Source of the DNA: a virus
Direction: 5' to 3' (one strand)
IMG/VR virus record: IMGVR_UViG_3300033512_000504
DNA length: 64,000 nt
A program made the translations under genes and the position numbers. The notes beneath the pieces were generated by a model. That model ran no database searches and was not told the origin of the DNA. It worked only from the letters and a program-made list of their open reading frames with translations. Numbering within the stretch: position 1 is the stretch's first letter; the number at the start of each line of letters is the position of its first letter. Of this stretch, positions 28,791 through 63,839 are shown one piece after another.

Positions 28791-28877
28791 ATGAAAACGT
28801 ATTTAGACAACCTTAGTTCGCTATCAAGTAGCAGTTATTGCTCCTTGATCCGCAGGGGTTTGTCTTGCGATTTCTAG
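28791..28877 (+). CDS. putative attenuator leader peptide, Ser/Cys-rich (MKTYLDNLSSLSSSSYCSLIRRGLSCDF)
   Basis: 8 Ser and 2 Cys codons in 28; precedes a terminator and tRNA-Cys/Ser genes. Confidence 0.65.
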   Translation: MKTYLDNLSSLSSSSYCSLIRRGLSCDF

Positions 28878-28898
28878 ATTGAAATTGCAAATTGATTT

Positions 28899-28932
28899 AA
28901 AAACCCCGTTCGGAAACGAAACGGGGTTTTTT
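28899..28932 (+). terminator. intrinsic terminator (attenuator 1)
   Basis: AAAAACCCCGTTCG-GAAA-CGAAACGGGGTTTTTT. Confidence 0.85.
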
Positions 28933-28975
28933 GTTTTTAGGGAGAAATTGATTATCAGAGAATAAAAATTAGATA

Positions 28976-29050
28976 GCACCGATGGTTGAGTGGTTAGACG
29001 GCAGACTGCAAATCTGTCCTACGGGGGTTCAATTCCCTCTCGGTGCTCCA
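28976..29050 (+). tRNA. tRNA-Cys(GCA)
   Basis: GCACCGA/TCGGTGC acceptor, U73, CCA; anticodon arm GCAGA-CTGCAAA-TCTGT. Confidence 0.95.
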
Positions 29051-29068
29051 TATTTAAGGAGATTGATT

Positions 29069-29257
29069 ATGATAGTTTTAGAAAAAAAGATTGACAAAGT
29101 TTGGGATTATGATTACTATATCGCTCAAGCTACTAAAACCCATATCAATGTAACGGGCAAAACAAAATTGCAAGCATTAAATAATTTGAAACAAGCGATT
29201 AGAAAAAGAATAAAAAGAGGAGATATATACTCTCTTGTTGAATACTTATTGAAATAA
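29069..29257 (+). CDS. small HicB-like protein
   Basis: SD AGGAG; Y.A....TGKT..QAL.NL..AI pattern. Confidence 0.45.
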   Translation: MIVLEKKIDKVWDYDYYIAQATKTHINVTGKTKLQALNNLKQAIRKRIKRGDIYSLVEYLLK

Positions 29258-29305
29258 CAGGAGGGTGTAACGGCCCCGTAGGTTCGAATCCTACTCGCTC
29301 CGCCA
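29219..29305 (+). pseudogene. decayed tRNA-Ser(TGA)
   Basis: Intact 3' half (variable arm, GGTTCGAATCC, CTCCGCCA); mismatched acceptor and anticodon stems; overlapped by the upstream ORF. Confidence 0.55.
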
Positions 29306-29327
29306 TTTTTATTTGTATAATTATTAA

Positions 29328-30202
29328 ATGACAAATATAAACCTAAAGAGTCCATTTAGATATCCCGGCGGAAAGCTAAAATTGCGAAATCAATTGTATC
29401 TTCGATAAAAGAAGAAATTGGTTTCGATTCTATTTTTTCAAAAAGCAGCATGAATACATTTGTTGATGTTTTTGTCGGTGGCGGTTCAGTTGCGGTAGCG
29501 GTAGCCAACGAATACCCTTTAGTAAAATTTGTTTTAAATGATTTAGATGATTGGATTTTTTCTTTTTGGAACAGTATGACCGATAAACAGGAATGTAATC
29601 GACTTTTGTCATATATTGATCAGTACAAAAACCCCATAATAGACGATTTCAATGCGTTACGTAAATCTTCAGAAAGAAAAGGATTAACTTGTGGATATAA
29701 AGGATTCATAGGTTTATTTTTTAACAGGACGACATTTTCAGGTATTTTTAAATCAGGAGCGATTGGGGGAGCGGATCAATCTGGAACATATAAAATTGAT
29801 TGTCGTTATAATTCTGCAAAATTAAAGGATTATATTGTTGCAATAAATAATAATTTTTCAAATAGAACAGTAAATGTTACCAATAAAGATTTCAGAGAGA
29901 TTATAACAGCCTACAAAGATCAAGAAGACGCTTTGCTGTATCTTGATCCGCCATATATGAGACAAGGCAATACATTATACAACCAGTTTATGATTGAAAA
30001 AGATTATGACGATATGGCAAACATGTTGAAAGAGTGTAAATGTAAATGGGTATTGAGTCATGATGATTATAAACCGTTTGTTAAGTTGTTTGATGGATGG
30101 ACAAATATAAAATCAATAGAAGGTGTTGCGTATACGATTAATTCAATTGAGGGGAAGAAAAAAACCGAATTGATAGTTACGCCAATTAAGCAGATTAAAT
30201 AA
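29328..30202 (+). pseudogene. dam: Dam-family DNA adenine methyltransferase with a 1-nt frameshift after RYPGGK
   Basis: ATG 29328 gives KSPFRYPGGK, then a frame change near 29376 leads into the ORF with FVGGGSV and YLDPPY. Confidence 0.8.
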
Positions 30203-30203
30203 A

Positions 30204-30292
30204 GGAAGTGTGTCCGAGTTGGTCTATGGAACTGGTCTAGAAAACCAGCAGGTGTCACAGCCTCGTGAGTTCGAATCTCACCGCTTCCGCCA
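30204..30292 (+). tRNA. tRNA-Ser(AGA)
   Basis: GGAAGTG/CGCTTCC, G73, CCA, long variable arm; CTGGT-CT AGA AA-ACCAG. Confidence 0.85.
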
Positions 30293-30307
30293 TTTTAAAG
30301 GAGTATC

Positions 30308-30622
30308 ATGAAGAACAAAAAGGACGAAAAGGATGATTTTTATGATGATTTTGACGACGAGCCAATAAAGTATATAGATCCGATGATACAAATGGACGAA
30401 GAAATGCTACGGGAAATGACCCGAGTATTTACTAAAGAAGATTGTCCAAACATGACTCAATTGGAAATAGATGCAGTTAATGTTTTTGAAAACAGAGTAG
30501 ATATAAACAATTTTCCTAAAGATTATCAGCAAAAAATTAAAAACTTTTATCGTTTTTCCCCTATCGACATGAAAAGTTTAAGTGCAAGTGCCTCTGGAGC
30601 GAGTAGAAGTTTCTGGAAATAA
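30308..30622 (+). CDS. hypothetical protein
   Basis: SD GGAG; acidic N-terminus. Confidence 0.6.
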   Translation: MKNKKDEKDDFYDDFDDEPIKYIDPMIQMDEEMLREMTRVFTKEDCPNMTQLEIDAVNVFENRVDINNFPKDYQQKIKNFYRFSPIDMKSLSASASGASRSFWK

Positions 30623-30623
30623 T

Positions 30624-30905
30624 ATGCCGAGTATGCAAGAACATTTTGAAGATTGCTACAAAGAATTAGGCGATGGGTGGATGTGCGTTCATCATTGGTT
30701 AGATGAGTTTTCAAAGATATATTTCCCTCAAAAAATACATCGTGTTCATCGACATCATCTAGAAGGGGTGGAGGAGGTACGAAAAATGTGGGGGAATCAA
30801 GCTGCTAAGGCTGCTGAAATACATATTTTAAAAGACGAAGGTATAATTTTAAGTGAGATTCAAATTAGAAAGCGTTATGGTGTAATTGAAAAGGAAGTTT
30901 GCTAG
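30624..30905 (+). CDS. hypothetical His-rich phage protein
   Basis: VHHWLDEF, HR.HRHHLEG, AEIHI. Confidence 0.6.
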   Translation: MPSMQEHFEDCYKELGDGWMCVHHWLDEFSKIYFPQKIHRVHRHHLEGVEEVRKMWGNQAAKAAEIHILKDEGIILSEIQIRKRYGVIEKEVC

Positions 30906-30982
30906 AGCGGTAATAGGTCGGTCTCGAAAACCGTAGCCACGGCGTAAGTCGTGCGAAGGTTCAATCCCTTCAACTTCCGCCA
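30893..30982 (+). tRNA. tRNA-Ser(CGA)
   Basis: GGAAGTT/AACTTCC, G73, CCA, long variable arm, CT CGA AA loop. Confidence 0.9.
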
Positions 30983-30987
30983 AATCA

Positions 30988-31314
30988 TTATAAACTTTTT
31001 AATATGCTTTTATCTAAAACATAAATTGAATTTGGCTCGTTAATTCCTTCGTTTACCCATAGAGCTTTGAATCCATTTTCTTTTGCTTCTTGAATTCCTT
31101 CATCTAAACTTTCCTCATTGGTTGCGAGCGGAAGTATTTCTTTGGAATATATTTGTGATGAATCAACTAAAAATGGTTTTACTTCTTTTTCTAGTCCACT
31201 TTGGGTAAATTGTCTAGCCCATTCTTTATCTGTTGTATAGAACGGACTATTTTTATTATAGACGTTTTGACCTTGATATATTTGAATTGTATTGGCTATT
31301 CTATATATTCTCAT
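30988..31314 (-). CDS. small ART-fold-like protein
   Basis: IYQG, FYTTDKEWARQF, and a C-terminal IYVL strand; N-terminal MRIYRIA. Confidence 0.4.
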   Translation of the reverse strand: MRIYRIANTIQIYQGQNVYNKNSPFYTTDKEWARQFTQSGLEKEVKPFLVDSSQIYSKEILPLATNEESLDEGIQEAKENGFKALWVNEGINEPNSIYVLDKSILKSL

Positions 31315-31394
31315 TTGAATTTTCTTATAGTCATTTTTTATTGTATTATAAATCGCTTTTACTCATTGTTAATATTAAATTATTCAAGTTTATC

Positions 31395-31422
31395 TTGACA
31401 AATACCTTGTTTCTAATATACT
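31395..31422 (+). promoter_or_regulatory. sigma70-like promoter
   Basis: TTGACA-N16-TATACT upstream of 31462. Confidence 0.65.
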
Positions 31423-31461
31423 GGAATTAAATACTGAAAATATTCAATATACGGAGTTATC

Positions 31462-32483
31462 ATGAATTTGTTAAACAGAGATGATTTCCGTGAATCTGTA
31501 TTTAAAAGAGATAATTTTAAATGCGTTATTTGCGGAGAAGAAGGTAAAGACGCCCATCATATCTTGGAACGAAGATTATGGGATGACGGAGGATACTATC
31601 TATCCAACGGCGTAACTCTATGCTCCGATCATCATATATTGGCTGAAAAAACCATTTTAAGCTGCGAAGATCTAAGAATAGCATGTAAAATTGATACCCC
31701 ATGCATCCCACCATATTTTGATAAAGGTAAAAAATATGACAAATGGGGCAATGAAATCTTGACAAGCGGTTTAAGAGTCAAGGGGGAACTATTTTTCGAC
31801 GAATCTGTACAAAAAGTATTAGCAGATGTATCAGATCAATTTACAGATTACGTTAAGTTTCCTAAAATCAAGCATTTACCTTTTTCTCCCGGTATAAACA
31901 GAGATGACCGTGTTATGTCTGAAAATGATTTAAACACCTATTCCAATAATATGCAGGTTGTTATAACAGAAAAGCTAGACGGAGAGAATACGTCTACTTA
32001 CACTGACAATATTCATGCCCTCGTTCAATTGATGGCAAAAATCATTGGTCGAGGGCATGGGTCAAGAATTTACACGCAGGTATAAAATTTGATATTCCCG
32101 ATGGTTGGCGGATATGTGGCGAGAATTTATATGCCAAACATTCAATCAAATATACAAAACTGCCATCATTTTTTATTGTTTTTACGATATATAATGAAGT
32201 AAATGAGTGCTTGAGTTGGTCGGAAACAAAAGAGTATTGCAATCTGTTGGGGCTTAATTATGTTCCAGTTTTATACGAGGGGCTGTATAATAATATTGAT
32301 TGGGACAAATTGTATAGCGTATCTAGGTTCGGAGGGGAGCAAGAAGGATATGTTATGCGTTTAAGTTCAAAATTCAATTTTACGCATCATGGCAATAGTA
32401 TCGTAAAATGGGTCAGAAAAGGTCATGTAACGACAAATCATAATTGGATGTATAGTAGTTACGAAAAGAACGAGATGGAATAA
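31462..32483 (+). pseudogene. HNH domain fused to an Rnl2-like RNA ligase, frameshifted near 32020
   Basis: CVIC..HHI..LC..HH, then TEKLDGEN. The ligase continues (RSIDG, ICGENLYAKHSI, QEGYV, KWVR) in another frame after GCC-CT-CGT. Confidence 0.75.
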
Positions 32484-32505
32484 TTTAATAATTTCTGGAC
32501 GGAAT

Positions 32506-32742
32506 ATGTTCGATTTAAATGAAAAAGAGAAAAATAAGTTAATTGAATGGATAAAAATTCATGACGAAGAATGCCCATTTAGTCATATTAACAGTTACAA
32601 AAATGTTTATAAACTGGTTGCAATAGGAGGTAGAATCTCTTATATTTTCACGCCAACGGGAGTAGGGACAACAATAGAAGCAAAATGCAGTTGTAATAAA
32701 GGTAATTATTCAATTGATTTAACTGATTATGACTCTTGGTAA
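32506..32742 (+). CDS. hypothetical protein
   Basis: ORF with SD; FTPTGVGT..C.C motif. Confidence 0.6.
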   Translation: MFDLNEKEKNKLIEWIKIHDEECPFSHINSYKNVYKLVAIGGRISYIFTPTGVGTTIEAKCSCNKGNYSIDLTDYDSW

Positions 32743-32747
32743 TCTAA

Positions 32748-32951
32748 ATGGATCAATACACAAAGAAATCTATCGTTAATGCATGTTTAGATGAAATTGA
32801 CATATCTAGGGACAAATTAAAGTCCATTAAAGATGATAGCGAACAACGAATATTGTTTCAAGGGTGGATTAGAAAACGAAAACAAACATTGAAAGAATTA
32901 GGATATAAGACAACAAGGAGAACCAAAAATGATAATAAATCAAAAAGCTAG
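32748..32951 (+). CDS. hypothetical protein
   Basis: Coupled ORF. Confidence 0.5.
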   Translation: MDQYTKKSIVNACLDEIDISRDKLKSIKDDSEQRILFQGWIRKRKQTLKELGYKTTRRTKNDNKSKS

Positions 32952-33348
32952 TTTTCCAAGGTCTGAAAAAGACTTGAAAAAACATTATGCAGTATATTAC
33001 AAAAACAAACTATCGCTATATCTCAGTCCACATTTGGCTATCAAAAACGATTTAGGTATTAAAGATTTGAAAAAGATCAGACGTATTCATATTAAAAGAT
33101 TACGACTGTTCGACGAGATTGAATCAGAAAGCGACGTTACAAAACTACATGAACTCGCAAATGATTTGGAGAAAATCGAGTATGAATTGCAAAAAGCATG
33201 GAAATTAAATCTAGATTCAAATTTTCATTCATGGTGGTTTCGTGCTCCAAAATGCACATGCCCAAAATTAGACAATAAAGAACGAATTGGAACAGGATTG
33301 TTTATTATTGATCGAAAGTGTTTGCTGCACGGAGAGTTATCTGTATAA
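32929..33348 (+). CDS. hypothetical protein
   Basis: HSWW..P.CTCPKLDN..C.LHG motif. Confidence 0.6.
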   Translation: MIINQKASFPRSEKDLKKHYAVYYKNKLSLYLSPHLAIKNDLGIKDLKKIRRIHIKRLRLFDEIESESDVTKLHELANDLEKIEYELQKAWKLNLDSNFHSWWFRAPKCTCPKLDNKERIGTGLFIIDRKCLLHGELSV

Positions 33349-33356
33349 TTGGTAAC

Positions 33357-33707
33357 ATGCATGTAAATCATTATGAATTATCAAGTAGTCAAATGTCAAA
33401 TGGGGACAGTGAGTACAATTTGTCAGTTGATTTTTGCTTTTATGATCATGACGAATTAGACGAATTTTTAAAACTATTATCAAGTTGGAATAGCGGAAAG
33501 TCGGTTAACAAGCATTTTGTTGTTTCAACACCTTTATCAAATGAAGATTTATTGTATAAAAATGTTACATTTGAAAAGATGAATGCAAATATGAATGCAC
33601 CAAATAAATCTTTATTTTCTGATGATTCTGAAAATATAAAAATCGAAAATAATTTGATTCATGCTTCAAATGTCGATAACAGCAGACTTTGTTTGGAGAT
33701 AGAATAA
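33357..33707 (+). CDS. hypothetical protein
   Basis: Coupled ORF; start reassigned. Confidence 0.5.
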   Translation: MHVNHYELSSSQMSNGDSEYNLSVDFCFYDHDELDEFLKLLSSWNSGKSVNKHFVVSTPLSNEDLLYKNVTFEKMNANMNAPNKSLFSDDSENIKIENNLIHASNVDNSRLCLEIE

Positions 33708-39660: not shown

Positions 39661-39743
39661 AAAAACTTCTTGCAATTAGAGGAGAAATGTATTATATTAA
39701 GAACAATGATTAAGTAATAAATGATTTTGGAGAATGATTTTAA

Positions 39744-39836
39744 ATGAATACTGTTATAGATATGAGAGATATGCGCTGGGATAGGATGAGCCTTCGGGTT
39801 CCTGCCTACGATCCCGCTTTATCTGCGTATAGATAA
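39744..39836 (+). CDS. putative attenuator leader peptide, Met-rich (MNTVIDMRDMRWDRMSLRVPAYDPALSAYR)
   Basis: 3 internal ATG codons plus one ATA; precedes a terminator and two CAT tRNAs. Confidence 0.6.
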   Translation: MNTVIDMRDMRWDRMSLRVPAYDPALSAYR

Positions 39837-39859
39837 CGGATCTTAGAAAAGGATTTAGG

Positions 39860-39890
39860 AACCCAAGGCTTAACTGTCTTGGGTTTTTTT
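39860..39890 (+). terminator. intrinsic terminator (attenuator 2)
   Basis: AACCCAAGGC-TTAACT-GTCTTGGGTT followed by a T run. Confidence 0.85.
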
Positions 39891-39935
39891 GTGTCGAAAT
39901 TTGATCTTTTAAAAATGAATATAGTTTAATATGAT

Positions 39936-40012
39936 TGCGGGAGGCTAGGACGTGGTGTTCTGGCGAGCCTCATAAGCTTGCAACTTGGGTTCGAGTCCCA
40001 ATCCCGCTACCA
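39936..40012 (+). tRNA. tRNA-Met(CAT), initiator-like 1:72 mismatch
   Basis: TGCGGGA/TCCCGCT, A73, CCA; CT CAT AA loop. Confidence 0.8.
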
Positions 40013-40029
40013 ATTTTAAAAAAGTATAT

Positions 40030-40106
40030 AGCGGTGTAGCTCAGTTGGTTAGAGCAGATCCTTCATACGGATAAGGTCGGGGGTTCGAATCCCTCCGCCG
40101 CTACCA
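40030..40106 (+). tRNA. tRNA(CAT): elongator Met or Ile2
   Basis: AGCGGTG/CGCCGCT, TT CAT AC loop, CCA. Confidence 0.9.
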
Positions 40107-40450: not shown

Positions 40451-41820
40451 ATCAACTACCCAATGACTAAAGATCATTGGGTTTGCGAGACCTTATCTCA
40501 CTATTAGCACGTTGATGGTGCTTGCCTATTAGGTTCAATCTACCGTCAATAGGTATATTAAACGAAACAGGGAGTTCTACGCCTTTTACTTTCTTTCTCA
40601 TGGCGTAACGATTTGCAATGTTTATTGATGCATTCCAGTCAGCATCAAAAACTTTGCTATCGCTTGTGTAATACCTACATCCCTGTCTTTTTCCTTTTTT
40701 AATACCTCTATAGTCATTCTTTGAGGTATAGGCAGGGTCAACCGTTACCACTATTTTCCCCTGTAGTGGTGCCTTGTAGGTTAATATTCTTCTTAAATCA
40801 AAATATGGAACTTGAGCTTGTTTGTTATTGAATTTCTTTCCTCTGTGGTGTTGTTTTATTCCACTCAAATCTTCCATTACTATTACATTGCATTTTGTTT
40901 CTAGGATTTTGTTCGAAATAAGATGTGATTCGTTTTTATTCTTATTGAACTCTTTTTTCTTAAGTGTTTTTAGTTTTTTCTGTGCTGAACGAGAAAAAGA
41001 AGTCTTACTCTTTGATTTAAATATTCTCTTTTTATATCTAAGTTTTCGTTTCTCTTTAAGAAATTGTTTATCTGTTATTGCTATGCCTTCCGATGTAGTA
41101 GCTAATCTTTTTATCCCCAAGTCTATTCCAATACAACCGTTTTCAATTAGTGTTGGTGTATTGACTTCAAAGGAAACTGAAAGCCATATATCATTATTCC
41201 TTACAAAAAGAAGTGGATCACAAACAGAATATTTTAAAAACATATCTTTGAATTTATCATATGGAGAATACGAGCAAACTATTCTTTTTCCTGTAGTTGT
41301 TAGTTTTATTTGATTATTAGGAAGAAAAGTGTATATTCTTTTGTCCAGTCTAATTGAAAGGTTTTCTTGTTTTGCTGCTTCAGTAATATTTTGGTGATTT
41401 GATTGAATAGTTTTATATGTGGAGTAAACCGAATCTTTTGCTCTGATGATTACTTGAGATGGACAATTTGGAAATAGGTTTCTGCATTGATGGTAGTTTT
41501 TGTCATGGATTAGTTTCTTATCAACGGTTTTAGATTCAAAAACATATTCTGCCATATAATTCCAAACTTTTTGATGTTCCAAAAGCATATCGACAAGAGA
41601 GGTTTTATCTTCTTGCTTTTGGAATTGGAGTTTAATATTATATGTTAAAACGTTCATATTTATGTATTTCTATATTTATTTATCATTTTCCTTTATTTTT
41701 GTTGCTTTTTGTTAAAATATAGCTATAATATAGAAAATAAGAAAGGAGATGGGCGGATTTAGACTGGTTGAAAATGGTTTCGCTTACCCACGACACTGAA
41801 GATGTCGGGGTTTCCGCTCA
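40451..41820 (-). mobile_element. non-autonomous IS200/IS605 (tnpB-only) element
   Basis: Left end TGAGCGGAAACCCC..GGGTAAGCGAA (41820 downward) resembles the 54059 left end; right end CCCAATGA..TCATTGGGTAGTTGAT. Confidence 0.75.
40467..41657 (-). CDS. tnpB: TnpB, copy 2 (Zn-finger cysteines largely absent)
   Basis: GIDLG, VMEDL, DADWNAS; no CxxC pairs before RuvC-III. Confidence 0.9.
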   Translation of the reverse strand: MNVLTYNIKLQFQKQEDKTSLVDMLLEHQKVWNYMAEYVFESKTVDKKLIHDKNYHQCRNLFPNCPSQVIIRAKDSVYSTYKTIQSNHQNITEAAKQENLSIRLDKRIYTFLPNNQIKLTTTGKRIVCSYSPYDKFKDMFLKYSVCDPLLFVRNNDIWLSVSFEVNTPTLIENGCIGIDLGIKRLATTSEGIAITDKQFLKEKRKLRYKKRIFKSKSKTSFSRSAQKKLKTLKKKEFNKNKNESHLISNKILETKCNVIVMEDLSGIKQHHRGKKFNNKQAQVPYFDLRRILTYKAPLQGKIVVTVDPAYTSKNDYRGIKKGKRQGCRYYTSDSKVFDADWNASINIANRYAMRKKVKGVELPVSFNIPIDGRLNLIGKHHQRANSEIRSRKPNDL

Positions 41821-43115: not shown

Positions 43116-43907
43116 ATGATATTAAAGCATTATGAATTAAACGAACACGAACAAGCGTTAGCAAATATGACTGTTCAAGAATTTGATAAATATATGACAG
43201 ACAATTATGCACAGCTTTTCAAGAACCGATTTCGGACTCCTGAAGATCAATATATTATGCCTATGCATTTTGGATTTGAAATCGGACCGGGTTGGCGTCA
43301 TGTATTGGATTCTTTATGTTCTAAATTAAAATTCATTCAAGATCATTTCAATGTGACGTGCGTATTCGACCAAATCAAAGAAAAAATGGGAGGGGCACGA
43401 TTTTACAGCCATGTTGAAATCAATCAATCTTCAAATTTAACAGAAAAAGAATATGCTATTATCGACGATATAATTTCAACGCTTGTTTCAAATAGCGAAG
43501 AGTATTGCGACTATATTTGTGAAGTTATCGGGAATAATATTGATCCTTGGGAGAAGATAAAGTTAGGTGGATGGTATTATGGATGTGGACTAGAAGGATT
43601 CAAGGTTCAATGGGAAGATTCTCCAGATAGAATTATAGCTGCTGAAAAAGCTTACGAACGGTCATCAAAGTTGCATGATATCGAATCTCGCATGGGAATT
43701 TTAAATGACGAGGAATTAGACGCAATAGAAGAAAGAATAGCAGAAAAAGAAGAAGAAATAAGAAACAAAACACTAGCCGTTTGTGATCGCATAGAGGCTA
43801 AGTTTAAATTAAATCAAGCAAAAAATGTAGACAAAAACAAAGAAAAAGTTGATGGTCAAGTTTGGTCGAATTTTAGTCCAACATTTGACGATATCGAAGA
43901 ATATTAA
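43116..43907 (+). CDS. conserved-looking phage hypothetical protein
   Basis: GFE.GPGW, QIKEK.GG.RFY, C.V.G motifs. Confidence 0.6.
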   Translation: MILKHYELNEHEQALANMTVQEFDKYMTDNYAQLFKNRFRTPEDQYIMPMHFGFEIGPGWRHVLDSLCSKLKFIQDHFNVTCVFDQIKEKMGGARFYSHVEINQSSNLTEKEYAIIDDIISTLVSNSEEYCDYICEVIGNNIDPWEKIKLGGWYYGCGLEGFKVQWEDSPDRIIAAEKAYERSSKLHDIESRMGILNDEELDAIEERIAEKEEEIRNKTLAVCDRIEAKFKLNQAKNVDKNKEKVDGQVWSNFSPTFDDIEEY

Positions 43908-43917: not shown

Positions 43918-43992
43918 GTCCCTATAGTGTAATGGACAGCACAAAAGCCTTCTAAGCTTTTAGTCTAGGTTCGAATCCTAGTAGGGACGCCA
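43918..43992 (+). tRNA. tRNA-Arg(TCT)
   Basis: GTCCCTA/TAGGGAC, CT TCT AA loop, GCCA. Confidence 0.95.
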
Positions 43993-44900: not shown

Positions 44901-45050
44901 TATTAATATTTCAAAAAACTGCCGATTATGTCCTTTTTATGGATTTTTGAAGATTATACTTGATTTTGAAAAATTATTATGTATAATGGAGTTATAAATT
45001 AAAGGAATTTAGAAAACGATTTTGAATAAGTAGAGATAGGAGTTCACAAT

Positions 45051-45125
45051 ATGTCATTTATGCAACAACAGAATAATCAAAATAACCAAAAGCCTGAGGG
45101 CTTCTTGGAACGGATTATTCTGTAA
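45051..45125 (+). CDS. putative attenuator leader peptide, Gln/Asn-rich (MSFMQQQNNQNNQKPEGFLERIIL)
   Basis: SD GGAG at an 8-nt spacing; nine consecutive Q/N codons; precedes Asn/Gln/Asn tRNAs. Confidence 0.8.
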   Translation: MSFMQQQNNQNNQKPEGFLERIIL

Positions 45126-45147
45126 AAAGCATAATCAAAGTCCACTG

Positions 45148-45179
45148 AAGACCCTCGGAAATTTCTGAGGGTCTTTTTT
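45148..45179 (+). terminator. intrinsic terminator (attenuator 3)
   Basis: AAGACCCTCGGAA-AT-TTCTGAGGGTCTT followed by a T run. Confidence 0.85.
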
Positions 45180-45204
45180 ATTGATCTTTTAACAATTTAA
45201 ATAT

Positions 45205-45280
45205 TCCGGTGTAGCTCAGTTGGTAGAGTAGGTGACTGTTAATCACCCCGTCGCTGGTTCGAGTCCAGCCACCGGAGCCA
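45205..45280 (+). tRNA. tRNA-Asn(GTT)
   Basis: TCCGGTG/CACCGGA, G73, CCA. Confidence 0.95.
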
Positions 45281-45286
45281 TTTTAT

Positions 45287-45362
45287 TGACTCGTAGTACA
45301 ATTGGCAGTACACCAGATTTTGATTCTGGGTGTTGGTGGTTCGAGTCCACCCGAGTCAACCA
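45287..45362 (+). tRNA. tRNA-Gln(TTG)
   Basis: TGACTCG/CGAGTCA, TT TTG AT loop, CCA. Confidence 0.95.
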
Positions 45363-45379
45363 TTTTAAAATTTGAATAT

Positions 45380-45455
45380 TCCTGATTAGCTCAATTGGTG
45401 GAGCAAGATGCTGTTAACATCGAGGTTCGGGGTCCGAGTCCCTGATCAGGAGCCA
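45380..45455 (+). tRNA. tRNA-Asn(GTT), second copy
   Basis: TCCTGAT/ATCAGGA, CT GTT AA loop; T-loop has TCC instead of TTC. Confidence 0.9.
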
Positions 45456-45460
45456 TTTTG

Positions 45461-45499
45461 TGGCAGTAGCAAAATGTTTTGCTACTGCCATATTTTTTT
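45461..45499 (+). terminator. hairpin terminator after the Asn/Gln cluster
   Basis: TGGCAGTAGCAAAA..TTTTGCTACTGCCA followed by a T run. Confidence 0.75.
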
Positions 45500-45568: not shown

Positions 45569-46276
45569 ATGAACATGAATAGGAAAACAAGTCCAATATG
45601 GATTAGTTGCACAAAAGAAGAGTTTTCTGAATTAATTAAGAAAAGCAAAACTTTTACAGAGGCATTGGCGTTTTTTGGATTAGGGAATAAGGGTAATAAT
45701 TATAGAACATTAAGAGAAAGAATGGATTATGAGAATGTTCAATATGCGCATTTATATGAAAACATTTACAGAAAAAAAGAATTTGGTAAAAAAACACCCA
45801 TTCAAAATATTCTTGTAGAAGGGTCTAAATATTCAAGACCTGATTTAAAGAGAAGACTTTTGGAGGAAAATTTACTAGAGAACAGGTGCTCAGTATGTGG
45901 GTTAATGCCAGAGTGGGAAGGAATGTCTTTAGTTATGATATTAGATCATATTAATGGTATTTCTAATGATAATAGGTTATCTAATTTAAGATTTATATGT
46001 CCTAATTGCAATAGTCAGACAAAGACATTTTCTGGTCGCAACGTAAAAAGACCAATAGATCCGAATAAAATTTGCAAATGCGGGAATAAAAAATGGGTAT
46101 TAGCTAAATTGTGTAAGGAGTGTTCGGGCATTGAGCTTCGTAAATGTGAGCATCCAACAAAAGAGCAATTAGCCGAAGATATATGTACATTATCTTGGGT
46201 AGCAATCGGAAAGAAATATGGCGTATCCGACTCTGCCTGCAAGAAATGGGCAAGGAAATACGGATTAATTGTATAA
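45569..46276 (+). CDS. HNH endonuclease with C-terminal helix-turn-helix
   Basis: CSVC, LDHING..DNR.SNLRFICPNC. Confidence 0.9.
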   Translation: MNMNRKTSPIWISCTKEEFSELIKKSKTFTEALAFFGLGNKGNNYRTLRERMDYENVQYAHLYENIYRKKEFGKKTPIQNILVEGSKYSRPDLKRRLLEENLLENRCSVCGLMPEWEGMSLVMILDHINGISNDNRLSNLRFICPNCNSQTKTFSGRNVKRPIDPNKICKCGNKKWVLAKLCKECSGIELRKCEHPTKEQLAEDICTLSWVAIGKKYGVSDSACKKWARKYGLIV

Positions 46277-54557: not shown

Positions 54558-54609
54558 TATTTTAAAGGATTATTTTATGCTTTTGTTGTGTAATACAAGA
54601 GTTAGCATA

Positions 54610-55806
54610 AATATATTATACAAAAACGTTATGAAAAAGAACTACAAATTCAGATTATATCCTACGAAAAAGCAAGAAAGAGAACTACTTGCAACACTTG
54701 AGGAATGTCGTTTTGTATACAATAAAATACTTGATACTAGAATTAAAACTTATGAATCTGAAAAGAAAACGCTTAACAAATACGATACAAATAATCTAAT
54801 CAAAGAATGGAAAACAGAAAGAGAACCACTTCAAAACATACATTCCCAAGTAGTTCAAAACGTATCAGAGCGAGTAGATTTAGCATTTAAAGCGTTTTTC
54901 CGTCGATGCAAGGAGAAAGGAGAAAAAGCAGGATTCCCAAGATTTAAACAATTTGGTAGATATGACTCATTCTGTTTTCCTCAATCAGGATTTTCTTTAA
55001 CTCAAAACGAAAAACGGTTAAAGCTTTCAAAAATCGGTTGCATTAAAATTGTATCTCATAGAACTCTTCCAGAACAAGTAAAGAGATTAACAATACAAAG
55101 AACAAAAAGTGGCAAATGGCATGCTATATTTTCATGCGTTTTAGCTGATGTAAAGAGAACAAACAATAACCCTGCTGTAGGAATTGATTTAGGATTAAAA
55201 GAGTTTGCAGTTCTTTCTAATGGTGATAAAATAAAAAGAGAACGTTTCTTTAAAGAGGGTGAAAAGAAATTAGCAAAGGAACAACGCAAATTTTCAAAAT
55301 TAGATAAGAAAACTCCAGAACGGAACAAACAAAGAATGATTGTTGGTAAAGTGCATGAGAAGATTCAAAATCAACGTTCTGATTTCACACATAAGTTATC
55401 AAAAGCACTTGTTCAAAAATACGGAATTATTTGTTTGGAGAAATTAAATATCAAATCCATGCAAGAACAAGATAAGATTTCAGTAAATGGCAAAGAAATA
55501 AAGGCAACAAGAACACATAAAAGTATACAGGATGTTGCTTGGAATCAATTCGTACAACAATTAGAGTATAAAGCGGAAGAAGCTGGTACTAGGATTGTGT
55601 TCGTAAATCCCAAGAATACTACTAAGATGTGTTCAAGTTGTGGTAAATTAACTAGTAAGGAACTATCAGATAGAATCCATGAATGCAGTTTGTGTGGATT
55701 AGTAATGGATAGGGATTTAAATGCTAGTAAAAATATTTTGAGAATCGGAATGGATTCTCTTAGGGATAGAGATATTCCTATAGAAGCCCCTACGCCTTTA
55801 GGCTAG
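54610..55806 (+). CDS. tnpB: TnpB, copy 3
   Basis: YKFRLYP, GIDLG, CLEKL, CSSC/CSLC, DRDLNAS. Confidence 0.95.
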   Translation, partial: NILYKNVMKKNYKFRLYPTKKQERELLATLEECRFVYNKILDTRIKTYESEKKTLNKYDTNNLIKEWKTEREPLQNIHSQVVQNVSERVDLAFKAFFRRCKEKGEKAGFPRFKQFGRYDSFCFPQSGFSLTQNEKRLKLSKIGCIKIVSHRTLPEQVKRLTIQRTKSGKWHAIFSCVLADVKRTNNNPAVGIDLGLKEFAVLSNGDKIKRERFFKEGEKKLAKEQRKFSKLDKKTPERNKQRMIVGKVHEKIQNQRSDFTHKLSKALVQKYGIICLEKLNIKSMQEQDKISVNGKEIKATRTHKSIQDVAWNQFVQQLEYKAEEAGTRIVFVNPKNTTKMCSSCGKLTSKELSDRIHECSLCGLVMDRDLNASKNILRIGMDSLRDRDIPIEAPTPLG

Positions 55807-56485: not shown

Positions 56486-56488
56486 GTC

Positions 56489-59095: not shown

Positions 59096-59113
59096 GAGAA
59101 ATAAAAAGTAAGT

Positions 59114-59632: not shown

Positions 59633-59642
59633 GGAGATTGGT

Positions 59643-60158
59643 ATGAAAAAGATTATCACAGTATTGACAGCTTTAGTTATCGTTTTAGGTTTTTCTGGAT
59701 GTACTCTTAATGAAGGGCAAGTTAAAACAATTGCTCAATCAAGCGGTACGGCAGCAGCAGTTGTTTGGATTGCCAGCGAAAGTCCAGATAGAATTACAAT
59801 GAGCCTTGTCGTTGATTTATTGAATACAATTGAAACTAATTTGGTTGCAATTTCAGCAGATAAAACTTATACAGAAGTACTTTATCCAATTGTTGTTCAG
59901 TTTGCAAAATCAAGTTCTGTTCCAGATCAATATGAACCACTGATAATGGCTGGAGGTTTAGCTACTTTGCAATCAATTGACGTTTTCTTTGTCATGTATC
60001 CAACTTGGAAAGACAAGGCAGAAACAACAAAAGGAATTGTAAATAGTTTTATTTTAGGAGCAAAAACAGGATTTTCACTTGCTGATAATGATGAAAGACT
60101 TGTAAATGCCAGAAAGATATCGGCAGCAAGAGTCAAAGCTAAAGCGTTTCAACAATAA
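59643..60158 (+). CDS. lipoprotein
   Basis: Signal peptide with FSGC lipobox. Confidence 0.65.
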   Translation: MKKIITVLTALVIVLGFSGCTLNEGQVKTIAQSSGTAAAVVWIASESPDRITMSLVVDLLNTIETNLVAISADKTYTEVLYPIVVQFAKSSSVPDQYEPLIMAGGLATLQSIDVFFVMYPTWKDKAETTKGIVNSFILGAKTGFSLADNDERLVNARKISAARVKAKAFQQ

Positions 60159-60164
60159 TTAATG

Positions 60165-60210
60165 AAGTGTTGTAATGAAAAGTAACCAAGTTTATTACAA
60201 CACTTTTCTT
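60165..60210 (+). terminator. long inverted repeat, possible terminator
   Basis: AAGTGTTGTAAT...ATTACAACACTT followed by T-rich sequence. Confidence 0.5.
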
Positions 60211-60220
60211 TTATAAAATT

Positions 60221-60478
60221 ATGAAAAATATAAAATATATCGTTGTAATCGCCGCATTATCATTACTCGCTGGATGTAGTTTTCAAACAAAATTCAAACA
60301 CGTTCAATCTAACGTTGCTGGATTAGACAGGAAAGTAACACTATACAGTAATGATGGCTCTGTTATTACTAATTATAATGGACGACTTAAGGTAGAAAAC
60401 CATGGTGGGTCTTGTTCATTCATAGTTAATGGAAAAGTCATCATCATTTCTGGAACCTATATTATTGAAGAGATTTAA
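60221..60478 (+). CDS. small lipoprotein
   Basis: LAGC lipobox. Confidence 0.65.
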   Translation: MKNIKYIVVIAALSLLAGCSFQTKFKHVQSNVAGLDRKVTLYSNDGSVITNYNGRLKVENHGGSCSFIVNGKVIIISGTYIIEEI

Positions 60479-60498
60479 CTAGATTGTAAAGGAGAATT

Positions 60499-61305
60499 AT
60501 GGCAAATTTCGTAGAACCAAAAGTGTATAAAATTGCAGAAACAAAATTAAATGACGATAACGTATTGGCATGGCTTGAAGATTTAGGAGGAGAAGAGTGC
60601 TTAGTACACGTTGAAGGTGATGATAAAGAGAAACTTATTGAATTCGCTGGCAGACGTTGTTATAAATCTTATAAAGAGGGTCTTAATCCGAACGTTACAA
60701 GAGTAAGAAAAAATAGTGAAGAATATCATGAAAATGTATTAAAGTCTCGTCATGGCTCTATTCTTGAACATGCATCGGTCACATTTGCTTTTGAAAACGT
60801 AAGTAGGGTTGTAACACATGAATTGGTAAGACATAGGGCGGGTGCTGCATATTCACAAGAAAGTCTCCGTTATGTTCGATTAACAGATATAAATATGTTT
60901 TTCCCGTCTATATTTAAGCAATTTGGTGAAGAGAAAAGATTAGAAGCGGAACGAATTGCTTTACGAACTATGCGTTATGCTGAAGATACTCAAAAAGAGT
61001 TAATGCAAATTTTCAAAGAGGATATGGAGTCTGATTTTGACACAAAGAAGAAATTAACATCTGCATTCCGTAGATATGCTCCTATTGGTTTGGCAACAGG
61101 TATTATTTGCACGTTTAACTTTAGAACGTTACGTCATATCATGGAAATGAGAACTTCCAAACATGCAGAAGAGGAAATTCGTTTAGTTATTGATCAGATG
61201 GCAGAATTTTGTGTTAAAGATTATCCAATGATATTTGGAGATTATATGGCTACCGATACAGAAGATGGGTTGGTCGAATATACTACTGAATACACAAAAG
61301 TTTAA
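60499..61305 (+). CDS. thyX: FAD-dependent thymidylate synthase
   Basis: HGSILEH, SRVVTHELVRHR..YSQES.RY, RTSKHAEEEIR. Confidence 0.95.
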   Translation: MANFVEPKVYKIAETKLNDDNVLAWLEDLGGEECLVHVEGDDKEKLIEFAGRRCYKSYKEGLNPNVTRVRKNSEEYHENVLKSRHGSILEHASVTFAFENVSRVVTHELVRHRAGAAYSQESLRYVRLTDINMFFPSIFKQFGEEKRLEAERIALRTMRYAEDTQKELMQIFKEDMESDFDTKKKLTSAFRRYAPIGLATGIICTFNFRTLRHIMEMRTSKHAEEEIRLVIDQMAEFCVKDYPMIFGDYMATDTEDGLVEYTTEYTKV

Positions 61306-61306
61306 T

Positions 61307-61552
61307 ATGATAATTCAAAAATATAAAGTCAAACTAGACGCTCCAACAGATAGTAATAGTAAATTTGTTGGAGCACCAGTATTTAAAGAAAATGGTAGTG
61401 ACGTTATTATAGGGTTTGTATCTGCATTTGATGGAACTGAAGCCACTATTACATTATTTGAGCCGATAGATCTTCCTATTGAAAACAAGAATATAACCGT
61501 ATCATCTAGAGTGTTGTCTGACGAAGATATGTTTAAAGATTTTGAATCATAA
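61307..61552 (+). CDS. hypothetical protein
   Basis: Coupled to the thyX stop. Confidence 0.5.
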   Translation: MIIQKYKVKLDAPTDSNSKFVGAPVFKENGSDVIIGFVSAFDGTEATITLFEPIDLPIENKNITVSSRVLSDEDMFKDFES

Positions 61553-61653
61553 AATGCTAAAGAATTATTTCTACGAGATTTAATAAAAAAGGGAAAATCT
61601 GAACGAGAATATAAAACGGAGTATCAGGGATTTTTATATAAAGGAGAATCAAA

Positions 61654-61917
61654 ATGACAATTGATCAAAAAATACAAAATATAACTGAAAACTATCCAGA
61701 CGCTAAATTAATGGACGGTTATGATGATTGCATAATTGGAATATGTAACCGATTCGGTATGGAGTCGATAGTACTGTATGATCAAGAAAAAGTTATTGAA
61801 AAATTAATGCAAGATGGTATGACTTGTGAAGAAGCTTTGGAATTTTTTGAGTATAATCAGCTAGGGTCGTAGGTAGGTGAAGGAACTCCAGCATTTGCCG
61901 ACCTTATGGAATATTGA
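61654..61917 (+). pseudogene. phage hypothetical gene with in-frame TAG at 61870
   Basis: DGYDDCIIG..EEALEFFEYNQLGS*VGEGTPAF; the frame ends 1 nt before the next ATG. Confidence 0.7.
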
Positions 61918-61918
61918 C

Positions 61919-62278
61919 ATGAACTTAATTACAAATAAACACGAATATATTGAACACTTTGGATGCCACATGTGTAAGCATTGTTTTAGAAAAATACCGC
62001 AAGAGGCAGAGAGTCTTATTGAATCAGATAGTGGTATAGACGCTTCTGATTTTTACGACAATGATAGTAGATATTTTGAATATTATTGCACATTTGAAGC
62101 AGAACCTAGACCAAAATGTGACGGTTATTATATAACTATAGACGAAAATTGCGATTATTAATGTTTTGAAGAACTACTGACATTCAAAGATATCAGTGGA
62201 CACCATGCTTGGGAAAAATGGGCAAACAAAAATAGAGTTAATCCTTGGGGCGTCTGTAAGAAATTTGAAGAAGATTAA
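61919..62278 (+). pseudogene. Cys-rich hypothetical gene with in-frame TAA at 62159
   Basis: ..DENCDY*CFEELL..NRVNPWGVCKKFEED* abuts the convergent gene end at 62275. Confidence 0.6.
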
Positions 62279-62898
62279 CTTCCGTAATATTCATCGTATA
62301 ATTTGAAATATTTTTCAGGCATTGGAAAAGTAAATTTTTTTGGTAAATTACTATATATTGATGAAGTTTCGTATGGTGGTTTTTTGGTTTTGTTAGAATA
62401 CCATTTTCTTTTTATCATTGCGTAGTTATAAAAATATACATACGAATTTGCTTTTTGTGTATATGTCTCACGGCAAATTGGCAAGTTGAATTTCTTAAAT
62501 ATTTTTATTGCTCTTTTTTCGCAATCTAACTCTAATAGTTGAATTGTTTTTACAGCGTTTTGTACGGCTTCGTCGTCCATTTCTTTTTTATGTGACAACC
62601 ATAGGAAAAATTTTTCTACTTGATCTTCTCCATTTAAGTACATTTTTGTCCAAACATCGCATTGTTCTTCCCACTGAGTAAAATGAGCATATTCATGTAC
62701 TAATATCGGTATCCATTCTGTTTCTGGTTTGTTAATAGCACATCTTAATATTTTGTTGTCTCCATCAAAATAGCCTGAACATCTTATTTTATCGCTGTTT
62801 AAGACTACATATTTTGATTTAGATAAGTCAAGTTTTACTTTGTTATCATGTAAAGTTTCTTTAATGTACAATATAAACTTTGTTGTTTGTTTATCCAA
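62275..62898 (-). CDS. putative Zn metallopeptidase (HExxH)
   Basis: LVHEYAH, ELDCE. Confidence 0.65.
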   Translation of the reverse strand: MDKQTTKFILYIKETLHDNKVKLDLSKSKYVVLNSDKIRCSGYFDGDNKILRCAINKPETEWIPILVHEYAHFTQWEEQCDVWTKMYLNGEDQVEKFFLWLSHKKEMDDEAVQNAVKTIQLLELDCEKRAIKIFKKFNLPICRETYTQKANSYVYFYNYAMIKRKWYSNKTKKPPYETSSIYSNLPKKFTFPMPEKYFKLYDEYYGS

Positions 62899-63052
62899 GA
62901 TGTATTTACATTCAATATTATGCCGTTTTTATTCTGTTTTAATATTTTTTAAAAAAATATTTGCTTTTTAAAAAAATCTGGTATAATATACATGTTGAAA
63001 ATAAATAAAGGATTTATCAATTAAAAATAAGAACGAGTTTTAAAGGTACAAA

Positions 63053-63136
63053 ATGAACATAAATACTATCCATATTCCAGAACATATTGAGGAACCCATT
63101 GCCCTCAGGCACGGGTATGGAATTGGTTTGTTCTAA
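63053..63136 (+). CDS. putative attenuator leader peptide, Ile/His/Pro/Glu-rich (MNINTIHIPEHIEEPIALRHGYGIGLF)
   Basis: SD AAGG; codons 6-16 are only I/H/P/E; precedes His/Ile/Pro/Glu tRNAs. Confidence 0.8.
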   Translation: MNINTIHIPEHIEEPIALRHGYGIGLF

Positions 63137-63152
63137 TTCTGTATAAGGTTTT

Positions 63153-63191
63153 AAACCCCTTGCCTGACGAAAGTTAAGCAAGGGGTTTTTT
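63153..63191 (+). terminator. intrinsic terminator (attenuator 4)
   Basis: AAACCCCTTGCCTGAC-GAAA-GTTAAGCAAGGGGTTTTTT. Confidence 0.9.
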
Positions 63192-63206
63192 ATTGCTCTT
63201 TTTAGG

Positions 63207-63235
63207 TTGACAAATAGAAAATAAAATGTTAGGAT
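63207..63235 (+). promoter_or_regulatory. sigma70-like promoter upstream of tRNA-His
   Basis: TTGACA-N17-TAGGAT. Confidence 0.5.
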
Positions 63236-63250
63236 GTTTGAAAATTTAAT

Positions 63251-63328
63251 GGCGGATGTAGCTCAATTGGTTAGAGCGTCAGATTGTGAATCTGAATGTT
63301 GCGGGTTCGAACCCCGTCATCCACCCCA
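63251..63328 (+). tRNA. tRNA-His(GTG)
   Basis: G-1/C73 pair, TT GTG AA loop, CCA. Confidence 0.9.
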
Positions 63329-63342
63329 ATTTTAGGATAAAA

Positions 63343-63522
63343 ATGAAAGAGTTATGGATGGAAGGAGTTAGAGAGATAACTGTTGATACAATGAATCTAA
63401 TTGAAAATAGATTGAAAGAATTCGGAATTGTCTTAACAGATTCAGAAGAAGATGATATACATAATAAGATATGGAATGTTTTAGAGAATAGAAGCAATGG
63501 CGAATATAAAAATCATATGTAA
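63343..63522 (+). CDS. hypothetical protein between tRNA genes
   Basis: SD AGGA; 59 aa. Confidence 0.55.
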   Translation: MKELWMEGVREITVDTMNLIENRLKEFGIVLTDSEEDDIHNKIWNVLENRSNGEYKNHM

Positions 63523-63559
63523 CAATATGGTTAGATCTTTGAAAATATAGTAATTTAAT

Positions 63560-63637
63560 AGGTGGGTAGCTCAGTTGGTTAGCAGCGTCTGTCTGATACA
63601 CAGAAGGTCGGGGGTTCGACTCCCTCTCCACCTACCA
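63560..63637 (+). tRNA. tRNA-Ile(GAT)
   Basis: AGGTGGG/TCCACCT, CT GAT AC loop, CCA. Confidence 0.95.
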
Positions 63638-63646
63638 ATTTTTAAA

Positions 63647-63745
63647 CAGCGAGTGGAAGAGTCTGGCTATCTTCGTACGGCTTGGAACCGGATATGTGTA
63701 CTAAGCGTGTATGCATCGGGGGTTCGAATCCCTCCTCGCTGACCA
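63647..63745 (+). tRNA. tRNA-Pro(TGG) with long variable arm (99 nt)
   Basis: CAGCGAG/CTCGCTG (C1-G72, A73), CT TGG AA loop, extra arm of about 24 nt, CCA. Confidence 0.75.
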
Positions 63746-63753
63746 ATTTTAAT

Positions 63754-63839
63754 GCCCCTATGGAGTAAACGGCTAACTCGTCAGACTTTCAATCTGGAGA
63801 CATCTAATGCTAGTGCGGGTTCGAATCCCGCTAGGGGTA
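63754..63839 (+). tRNA. tRNA-Glu(TTC) with extended variable region, no encoded CCA
   Basis: GCCCCTA/TAGGGGT, CT TTC AA loop, GGTTCGAATCC. Confidence 0.75.

Follow-up and report, generated by a model that had tools for sequence, protein, structure and literature searches.

What decides when a phage expresses the transfer RNA (tRNA) genes that it carries? The reasons why phages carry such genes have been debated for decades, and codon supplementation, decay of host tRNAs and escape from tRNA-cleaving defenses have all been proposed. The regulation of phage tRNAs has received far less attention than their purpose. The question is raised by a 64,000-nt stretch of a huge uncultured phage, virus record IMGVR_UViG_3300033512_000504 (the window, to which coordinates refer unless another genome is named), where four groups of tRNA genes each follow a short open reading frame (ORF) and an intrinsic terminator. 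The codons of these ORFs match the tRNAs encoded downstream. From this match and from modeled RNA folding, we consider it likely that each unit is a ribosome-mediated (leader-peptide) transcription attenuator with a tRNA operon as its cargo. This interpretation, put forward in an earlier reading of the window from its letters alone (the original prediction), is supported here by tests of reading frame, RNA pairing, synteny and covariation and by an unbiased scan of relatives, from which we infer that translation controls read-through.

The window contains 13 tRNA genes, all on the + strand and found in agreement by ARAGORN and Infernal. They form five groups: Cys/Ser(AGA)/Ser(CGA), two genes with a CAT anticodon, a lone Arg(TCT), Asn-Gln-Asn, and His/Ile/Pro/Glu. 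The same module of 200-250 nt precedes four of the five groups and consists, in order, of a sigma-70-type promoter-like site, an A-rich untranslated stretch, an ORF beginning with ATG, a small hairpin that spans the stop codon, and a GC-rich hairpin followed by a T run. The leader ORFs have 28, 30, 24 and 27 codons (units 1-4), and their stop codons lie 23, 22, 21 and 16 nt before the terminators. Promoter-like sites are located 45-75 nt upstream of the leader ORFs, and GGAG or AAAGG is found 6-16 nt before the ATG in units 2-4. The architecture anticipated in the original prediction, a leader of 24-30 amino acids, a terminator and then tRNA genes at four loci, was therefore recovered, with a measured stop-to-hairpin gap of 16-23 nt. 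The whole 64 kb holds six + strand hairpin/T-run sites of -15 kcal/mol or below, and four of these are the leader-unit terminators. Promoter-like matches are numerous in this AT-rich DNA, at about the level expected from shuffles. The lone tRNA-Arg (43918-43992) begins 11 nt past the ORF 43116-43907 and has neither leader nor terminator, and this gene layout agrees with the earlier claim that it lacks a leader.

The leader of unit 1 (28791..28877, +, 28 aa) has the control run L-S-S-L-S-S-S-S-Y-C-S-L and contains eight Ser and two Cys codons in addition to five Leu codons. Its cargo (28976..30982, +) comprises tRNA-Cys (28976-29050), tRNA-Ser(AGA) (30204-30292) and tRNA-Ser(CGA) (30893-30982), and the ORFs between these genes include a D12-class Dam methylase. 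Of the Cys and three Ser genes originally listed here, the Cys gene and two intact Ser genes stand; the third is a 3' remnant only (about 29260-29310), which retains the T arm, the 3' strand of the acceptor, G73 and CCA, with no 5' half nearby. The leader of unit 2 (39744..39836, +, 30 aa) has the control region I-D-M-R-D-M-R-W-D-R-M, with three internal Met codons, ATA at codon 5, four Asp, five Arg and one Trp codon, and precedes two tRNAs with CAT anticodons (39936..40106, +; genes at 39936-40012 and 40030-40106), the second of which may be a lysidine-type tRNA-Ile. The pairing of Met codons (plus ATA) with two CAT tRNAs was correctly predicted, and a Met-only reading of this leader proved too narrow: its family has the core R-D-W-D-R-M and in relatives precedes clusters for Trp, Met, Asp and Arg. 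The leader of unit 3 (45051..45125, +, 24 aa), with GGAG 9-12 nt upstream, carries the run QQQNNQNNQ before tRNA-Asn(GTT), tRNA-Gln(TTG) and a second tRNA-Asn(GTT) (45205..45455, +). The leader of unit 4 (63053..63136, +, 27 aa), with AAAGG 6-10 nt upstream, carries the run IHIPEHIEEPI before tRNA-His(GTG), a 59-codon ORF, tRNA-Ile(GAT), tRNA-Pro(TGG) and tRNA-Glu(TTC) (63252..63840, +).

The match between leader codons and downstream tRNAs is beyond chance. When residues with a cognate tRNA downstream were scored against the amino-acid frequencies of the window's own long ORFs, matched residues were enriched in each leader (binomial P = 1.3e-4, 0.031, 1.9e-4 and 6.2e-5 for units 1-4). The true pairing of leaders and clusters is the single best of the 24 possible in the window, with 36 matched residues compared to a permutation mean of 13.2. 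It is also uniquely best in the relatives introduced below, at 1/24 in a 508-kb contig, 1/5040 in G003, 1/120 in G002 and 1/120 in LR756501.1. Moreover, the match is specific to the reading frame: across 20 units, 43% of residues are matched in the frame of the ORF, compared to 16% and 9% in the other two frames. The claim that the control codons name the downstream tRNAs is thus borne out by the enrichment, permutation and frame tests alike. Variation in the Gln/Asn run that was exclusively synonymous (alignment A1) was left unused as evidence, as it is partly imposed by the search pattern.

The four terminators, all on the + strand and each a hairpin followed by a T run, lie at 28901..28937 (hairpin 28901-28929, -16.8 kcal/mol), 39859..39893 (39859-39886, -16.3 kcal/mol), 45147..45182 (45147-45176, -20.3 kcal/mol) and 63153..63194 (63153-63188, -21.9 kcal/mol). 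Each leader contains a segment that could pair with the 5' arm of its own terminator. These putative antiterminator segments are AGGGGTTTG at codons 22-24 of unit 1 (28854..28862, +), which pairs with AAACCCCG of the 5' arm and, in the full-length fold, alternatively with codons 6-8; codons 16-20 of unit 2 (39789..39802, +); codons 15-19 of unit 3 (45093..45105, +); and codons 18-22 of unit 4 (63104..63116, +). The best duplexes have energies of -11.4, -17.0, -18.2 and -17.9 kcal/mol (units 1-4), and the fractions of 300 shuffled leaders that reach these values are 0.053, 0, 0 and 0.003. Complementarity of this kind, noted in the original prediction, hence exceeds that of shuffles in three units and is borderline in unit 1. 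More broadly, the best duplex lies just past the control run, at codons 14-24, and the shuffle fraction is 0.05 or less in 18 of 20 units (0.053 and 0.060 in the others). The gap between stop codon and hairpin is 14-25 nt in 19 of the same 20 units. With this spacing, a ribosome that terminates would rest immediately short of the terminator and over the hairpin around the stop codon, itself the apex of the antiterminator stem.

The folding of each leader with the ribosome-covered region masked, suggested as a check in the earlier reading, was modeled co-transcriptionally, with RNA extending to the terminator loop, before the 3' arm exists, and with a 29-nt ribosome footprint. When the A site is placed on control codons, the leader is predicted to pair with 7-14 nt of the 5' arm in each of the eight units modeled, those of the window and its 508-kb relative. 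Once the ribosome has moved to the segment that follows, the predicted pairing of the 5' arm falls mostly to 0-4 nt, yet remains 6-9 nt in W1, W4 and R3. In these models the truncated folds behave as an attenuator would require.

The leader RNAs of the window are also more structured than their shuffles (z = -5.2, -3.9, -7.4 and -3.5 for units 1-4). This degree of structure, together with the lack of a Shine-Dalgarno (SD) motif near the ATG of leader 1, might be taken to suggest that the leader RNA binds tRNA directly, as a T-box or another riboswitch, with no translation and with the ORFs incidental. We consider this very unlikely. A search with Rfam cmscan at gathering thresholds of the window and three relative loci returned tRNAs only, with no T-box and no other leader family, and the leaders, at 60-130 nt, are shorter than T-boxes as these are generally known. 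In addition, an ATG preceded by an SD-like motif is present in most leaders, and the frame-specific match in runs of up to seven amino acids goes beyond what a single specifier codon would name. The negative Rfam result and the frame-specific ORFs together exclude T-boxes.

How might a leader-peptide attenuator with a tRNA cargo operate? A short messenger RNA would start at the sigma-70-type promoter, and a ribosome would translate the leader of 24-30 codons. Where decoding of the control codons (about codons 4-17) meets no delay, the ribosome would cover the next segment (about codons 14-24) and reach the stop codon, where it would sit over the small hairpin 16-23 nt before the terminator; the 5' arm could then pair only with the 3' arm, and the polymerase would halt at the T run. 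If an aminoacyl-tRNA is scarce, the ribosome would stall at one of its control codons, leaving the downstream segment free to pair with the emerging 5' arm. The resulting antiterminator would block the terminator, and the polymerase would continue into the tRNA genes. A boxA-like motif that follows the terminator in three of the four units may shield the untranslated transcript. Since the tRNAs so produced decode the control codons, each tRNA set would form a self-closing feedback loop. Both the translation of the leaders and the change of fold upon stalling are presumed here from the sequence. The shortage might be caused by decay or cleavage of host tRNAs, by a mismatch between the codon demand of the phage and the supply of the host, or by starvation.

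The last of these causes defines an alternative in which the device is the same but its input is amino-acid starvation, so that the units would be starvation or stringent-type sensors, responding to uncharged tRNA, that happen to drive tRNA genes. Leader-peptide attenuators respond to aminoacyl-tRNA and, as known from trp and his, a missing amino acid and a missing tRNA are indistinguishable to them; our leader tests likewise do not separate starvation from the tRNA pool as input. A larger supply of tRNA, however, does not relieve amino-acid starvation, so that a starvation loop would not close. The synonymous codons of the leaders bear on this point as well. Under strict wobble rules, in families of three, four and six codons, an anticodon encoded downstream can read 91 of the 110 codons for matched residues, compared to 78.8 expected from synonymous usage (z = 3.0). 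For example, both Ile codons before tRNA-Ile(TAT) are ATA, whereas 17 of 19 before tRNA-Ile(GAT) are ATT or ATC, although ATA represents 43% of the Ile codons of these genomes. Synonymous choice in the leaders follows the downstream anticodons, which favors tRNA species over amino acids as the thing that the leaders list. We therefore regard starvation as an unlikely primary input and retain sensing of the tRNA pool by leader-peptide attenuation as the preferred reading.

If the units are attenuators, leader codons should change together with tRNA content in related phages, and the search for such covariation in huge phages, proposed in the original prediction, showed this in four relatives. 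Megablast and blastn searches of GenBank phages with two of the loci gave tRNA genes as the only matches, and IMG/VR scans with neighboring proteins gave one distant relative only (L001/G001, 461 kb). The 508,676-bp contig JBINOA010003471.1 was reached through a 73%-identical copy, at the same place, of the gene 45569-46276 beside unit 3. This contig was traversed by protein look-ups, and the leaders in it were located by synteny alone. It contains counterparts of all four window leaders with their control runs kept: LSSLSLSSCL at L010:8685-8765, before Cys, five Leu and five Ser tRNAs; RRDWDRM at L008:8904-8984, before Trp, Met, Met and Asp and, further on, Arg; QQNNQNNQ at L002:8905-8964, before Gln, Asn, Gln and Asn; and IHIPEHIIEPE at L013:17810-17890, before His, Ile, Glu and Pro (plus Arg). 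Terminator stems have different sequences in the window and the contig, and the leader segment opposite the 5' arm has changed along with them. In unit 4, for example, GGCACGGG opposite CCCCTTGCC in the window is replaced by GGAAGGGG opposite CCCCCTTCC in the 508-kb relative.

Back-translated leader motifs matched two further IMG/VR records, IMGVR_UViG_3300020048_003770 (G002, 161 kb) and IMGVR_UViG_3300018080_008436 (G003, 476 kb, with 60 tRNAs). An unbiased scan was then applied to all tRNA clusters of G003 and to the first 80 kb of G002, which hold all of its tRNA matches, for ATG ORFs of 10-45 codons that end at most 50 nt upstream of a strong hairpin/T-run located at most 800 nt upstream of a tRNA. 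The scan yielded ten leaders for amino-acid sets beyond the two search motifs, nine of which are given here, as well as the Gln/Asn leader of both G002 and G003 and the His/Ile/Glu leader of G002. In G003, all on the - strand, these are TTKTTKTTKTTKK (T/K) at L061:2439-2516, before three Thr and three Lys tRNAs; IAIAVVAVAVVA (V/A/I) at L062:2287-2373, before Val, Ala, Ala, Val and Ile(TAT); F-R-F-F at L063:1328-1372, before two Phe; EPEREEPP at L064:2155-2232, before three Glu and three Pro; VVRDMHIIRRDW-H-R at L065:3190-3270, before four Arg, Trp, two Ile, Val, two Asp, Met and His; and SLSLSLCSSYLSL at L066:5639-5716, before two Cys, two Tyr and Leu and Ser tRNAs. The leaders of G002 have the runs FSFFSF (before Phe), GIGIAGACGGAA (before Ala and Gly) and KTKTVEKATVFKKTV (before Lys, Val, Thr, Thr and Lys).

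A published 735-kb phage genome, LR756501.1, reached through a distant protein match, contributes five more units: an M/I/Q/E leader before Met, Gln, Ile and Glu tRNAs; YNDYCIND before Tyr, Asn, Asp, Cys and Ile; a Leu-rich leader before five Leu; SKHSKHFSSSSKWF (S/K/H/F/W) before Ser, Lys, His, Phe and Trp; and a T/P/A/V/R/G leader before Arg, Thr, Val, Ala, Gly and Pro. The Gln/Asn-leader pattern also had 23 matches in metagenomes. All 13 matches that are short ORFs have a terminator 15-20 nt past the stop codon, and Gln/Asn tRNAs are present for 10 of the 13 within the contig sequence examined; the other 10 matches, in long or start-less frames, have neither terminator nor Gln/Asn tRNAs and serve as internal negatives. 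In leader-pattern scans generally, most matches were chance matches inside long genes. The 29-tRNA array of G001 has one strong upstream terminator, but inspection by eye of the adjacent ORFs (with eight tRNAs downstream) gave no obvious matching codon run, and it was not counted. In total, we count 25 units in five genomes; metagenome contigs add nine more Gln/Asn leader loci, each distinct. For most leaders, an SD-like AAGGA or GGAG is present 8-13 nt ahead of the ATG. Approximately half of the 25 leaders begin with Met-Asn and share an A-rich 5' untranslated region with AAGGA 8-13 nt before the ATG; judged by their sequences, the modules resemble a family of paralogues that has spread as copies were duplicated and re-coded.

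The spacing in these genomes bears on a further explanation, in which the terminators simply end operons or insulate them, promoters downstream drive the tRNAs, and the short ORFs have arisen by chance or are remnants of genes. Promoter-like sites do follow terminators 4 and 2, in AT-rich DNA that yields many such matches at roughly the shuffle expectation. Each leader, however, has its own promoter-like site and no upstream gene to terminate, and chance is made improbable by the permutation, frame and shuffle tests. The first tRNA of most G003 units begins 6-50 nt past the terminator, too close for a promoter of its own, and relatives keep the leader even so. We consider this explanation extremely unlikely and return to attenuation of the tRNA operons.

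Several observations nevertheless weigh against attenuation, or against its uniform application. Only three of the 29 codons of leader 2 are matched in the window phage (P = 0.03), its Asp, Arg and Trp codons have no cognate tRNA downstream in the window, and a weaker promoter-like site (TTGATC-18-TTTAAT) lies before the Met tRNAs. In unit 1, the leader has no SD motif near its ATG and may be leaderless, the antiterminator is the weakest (-11.4 kcal/mol, reached by 0.053 of shuffles), and four of the eight Ser codons (AGT/AGC) are unreadable by the remaining Ser tRNAs of the window. The 508-kb relative carries Leu tRNAs and Asp, Arg and Trp tRNAs, which explains the unmatched codons of window leaders 1 and 2. 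Units 1 and 2 of the window look like reduced versions by this sequence comparison, and an opposite-strand TnpB gene and inserted ORFs are found in or beside them. Downstream of terminator 4, between it and tRNA-His, is a good promoter-like site, TTGACA-17-TAGGAT with TG (63207..63235, +), possibly a constitutive bypass that would provide a basal tRNA level; a counterpart is absent at the homologous sites of relatives, where there is often no room for one.

Other points of this kind come from the RNA models and from the distribution of the units. Equilibrium folds that include the whole terminator give the terminator in nearly every masked state, unit 2 excepted, so that the switch must be kinetic, as in trp, which is assumed here. 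The predictions for the untranslated state also disagree: when truncated RNAs are folded with no ribosome on them, the antiterminator is predicted for seven of eight units, including three of the four in the window, whereas full-length folds give a sequestered antiterminator segment and a formed terminator in all four window units. Finally, leaders are missing from single tRNAs that have their own promoter or abut a gene and from the Gly cluster of G003, and the 12-kb regions around the tRNAs of Bacillus phage G and Agrobacterium phage Atu_ph07 contain no units.

The units resemble the enterobacterial attenuators (trpL, hisL, leuL, thrL, pheL and ilvL/ivbL) in having a short ORF with regulatory codons, an intrinsic terminator and an alternative pairing of its 5' arm. 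As in the ilv and thr leaders, several amino acids would be sensed by one leader, with the position of the ribosome as the read-out. To our knowledge, the cargo of all described leader-peptide attenuators is an operon for amino-acid biosynthesis, amino-acid transport or a synthetase. The phage cargo, in contrast, is made up of tRNA genes in place of such operons, accompanied by a Dam methylase and a few small ORFs, and its product would act directly on its own sensor. The phage units are also carried by a virus, four of them in the window and up to seven in one relative, each with a different codon set. A single phage leader names up to seven amino acids and has no sequence similarity to the Rfam leader families, and an anti-antiterminator (segment 1:2) is clear only in some of the units.

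The nearest case by logic is the Escherichia coli pheM leader, which attenuates pheST, encoding phenylalanyl-tRNA synthetase. There, too, a component of translation is controlled by the decoding of its own codons, although that component is a protein, the synthetase of a single amino acid, and the genome is cellular, whereas the phage units would control tRNAs themselves. T-box riboswitches of Firmicutes likewise use a terminator/antiterminator switch to report the state of a specific tRNA and control translation-related genes; they differ in that no ribosome takes part and a specifier codon and the T-box sequence contact uncharged tRNA directly, where the phage units have ORFs. What would set the phage units apart from the known attenuators is above all their cargo: tRNA genes controlled through the decoding of their own codons, in a virus and in several parallel units.

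PMC10264068 describes phage-borne tRNAs as a codon supplement or counter-defense that replaces host tRNAs lost or cleaved in infection; the arrays described here differ in that a sensor appears to be attached to each tRNA set. The words attenuation, leader and terminator are absent from PMC10264068, from a 2026 survey (PMC13015707) and from the paper on the 735-kb genome (PMC7162821). Full-text searches of openly accessible literature returned no description of leader-peptide attenuation of tRNA genes.

If this regulation operates as proposed, phages gauge how fast each codon is decoded and react as the need arises, and their leaders offer a direct read-out of which tRNAs become limiting during infection. 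Classic attenuation would then also cover cases in which the product is an RNA and acts back on the sensor that controls it. We speculate further, as a scenario that is possible but somewhat less than an even prospect, that the genomes of huge phages hold a whole set of tRNA homeostats, each independent of the others and self-closing. Each operon would be switched on within seconds of a decoding delay, allowing repair, isoacceptor by isoacceptor, of host tRNA depletion, including cleavage by anticodon nucleases, and the leaders would record which host tRNAs are at risk. The module would evolve by duplication and re-coding and would be widespread but unnoticed in published genomes, including that of the 735-kb phage. 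The modules are short (approximately 200 nt) and self-contained, with ordinary sigma-70 promoters, so that they can be moved into reporter strains, where they could serve as in-cell sensors of individual tRNA pools.

The remaining elements of the units are the promoter-like sites and the boxA-like motif. Unit 1 has the promoter-like site TTGATT-16-TATAAT with TG (28712..28739, +) and a second, extended -10 element, TGGTATAAT (28776-28784, +), which would start transcription at the ATG and yield a leaderless mRNA. The site of unit 2, read from the sequence, is TTGCAA-17-TATATT (39670..39698, +), and that of unit 3 is TTGATT-16-TATAAT (44960..44987, +). Unit 4 has the extended -10 element TGGTATAAT (62979..62987, +), and a near-identical promoter precedes the homologous leader of G002. 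The boxA-like motif, TTG[A/C]TCTTTT[A/T]A, occurs exactly three times in the 64-kb window, each 5-15 nt after one of terminators 2, 3 and 4: TTGATCTTTTAA at 39901..39912 (+) in unit 2 and at 45181..45192 (+) in unit 3, and TTGCTCTTTTTA at 63193..63204 (+) in unit 4. It is not found at unit 1 or in many relatives. The phage motif resembles the E. coli rrn boxA and precedes a long untranslated transcript; by analogy it could protect this transcript from Rho. The likeness is one of sequence and position only, and a NusB/S10 site is putative. A reading of the motif as a -35 box was rejected as a general one, as the spacing fits unit 2 only. Unit 3 is closed by a further terminator at 45459..45499 (+), with a 15-bp stem (-22.7 kcal/mol).

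Several neighboring features were noted. The gene 45569-46276, directly after the Asn-Gln-Asn operon, is a mobile gene with approximately 1000 metagenome homologues, some with HNH-type Pfam domains. Two TnpB/IS605-OrfB genes, with Pfam OrfB_IS605 and Cas12f1-like TNB domains, lie at 40467-41657 (-), just downstream of the reduced Met unit, and at 54577-55806 (+). The best genome matches of the latter are 44-46% identical and belong to Chloroflexales metagenome-assembled genomes (MAGs); naming a host through TnpB was rejected, because the closest Chloroflexales MAG genes, at 46% identity or less, are too weak a guide. Among sequencing runs, good matches to the window were confined to two DNA runs from microbial mats, and no RNA run matched. 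In unit 1, the small ORF 29069-29257 precedes the tRNA remnant and is conserved in position in the 508-kb relative (L010:9052-9204), there followed by an intact tRNA-Leu. An ORF of approximately 110 aa lies inside tRNA operons of both phages, in different clusters (30582-30905 in the window, L002:9179-9529 in the relative). The version in the relative has a weak Pfam match to DUF6915, and the window ORF is similar by eye; its position suggests a tRNA-related function.

The tRNA-Ser at 30204-30292 has an A34 anticodon (AGA), which is unusual in bacteria and phages and may be read as inosine or represent a nuclease-escape variant. Anticodons of the amber-reading type (CTA) occur in a G003 tRNA with its own promoter and no leader (L067) and in two tandem tRNAs of LR756501.1 (L115), and these two phages may read TAG as sense at some stage. 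In the 508-kb relative, the Trp/Met/Asp unit has, past its terminator and ahead of its first tRNAs, a strongly self-complementary RNA of approximately 230 nt with no Rfam match (L008:9060-9290), followed by a weak tRNA-like gene (33.5 bits). The tRNA units of this relative at L010 and L013 neighbor genes for IF3, DnaJ, a ClpB-like AAA protein and a tRNA-methyltransferase/NAD-synthase-like protein, indicating that translation-related genes are clustered there. In the window itself, GC skew flips sign near 26 kb, consistent with divergent transcription from that point.

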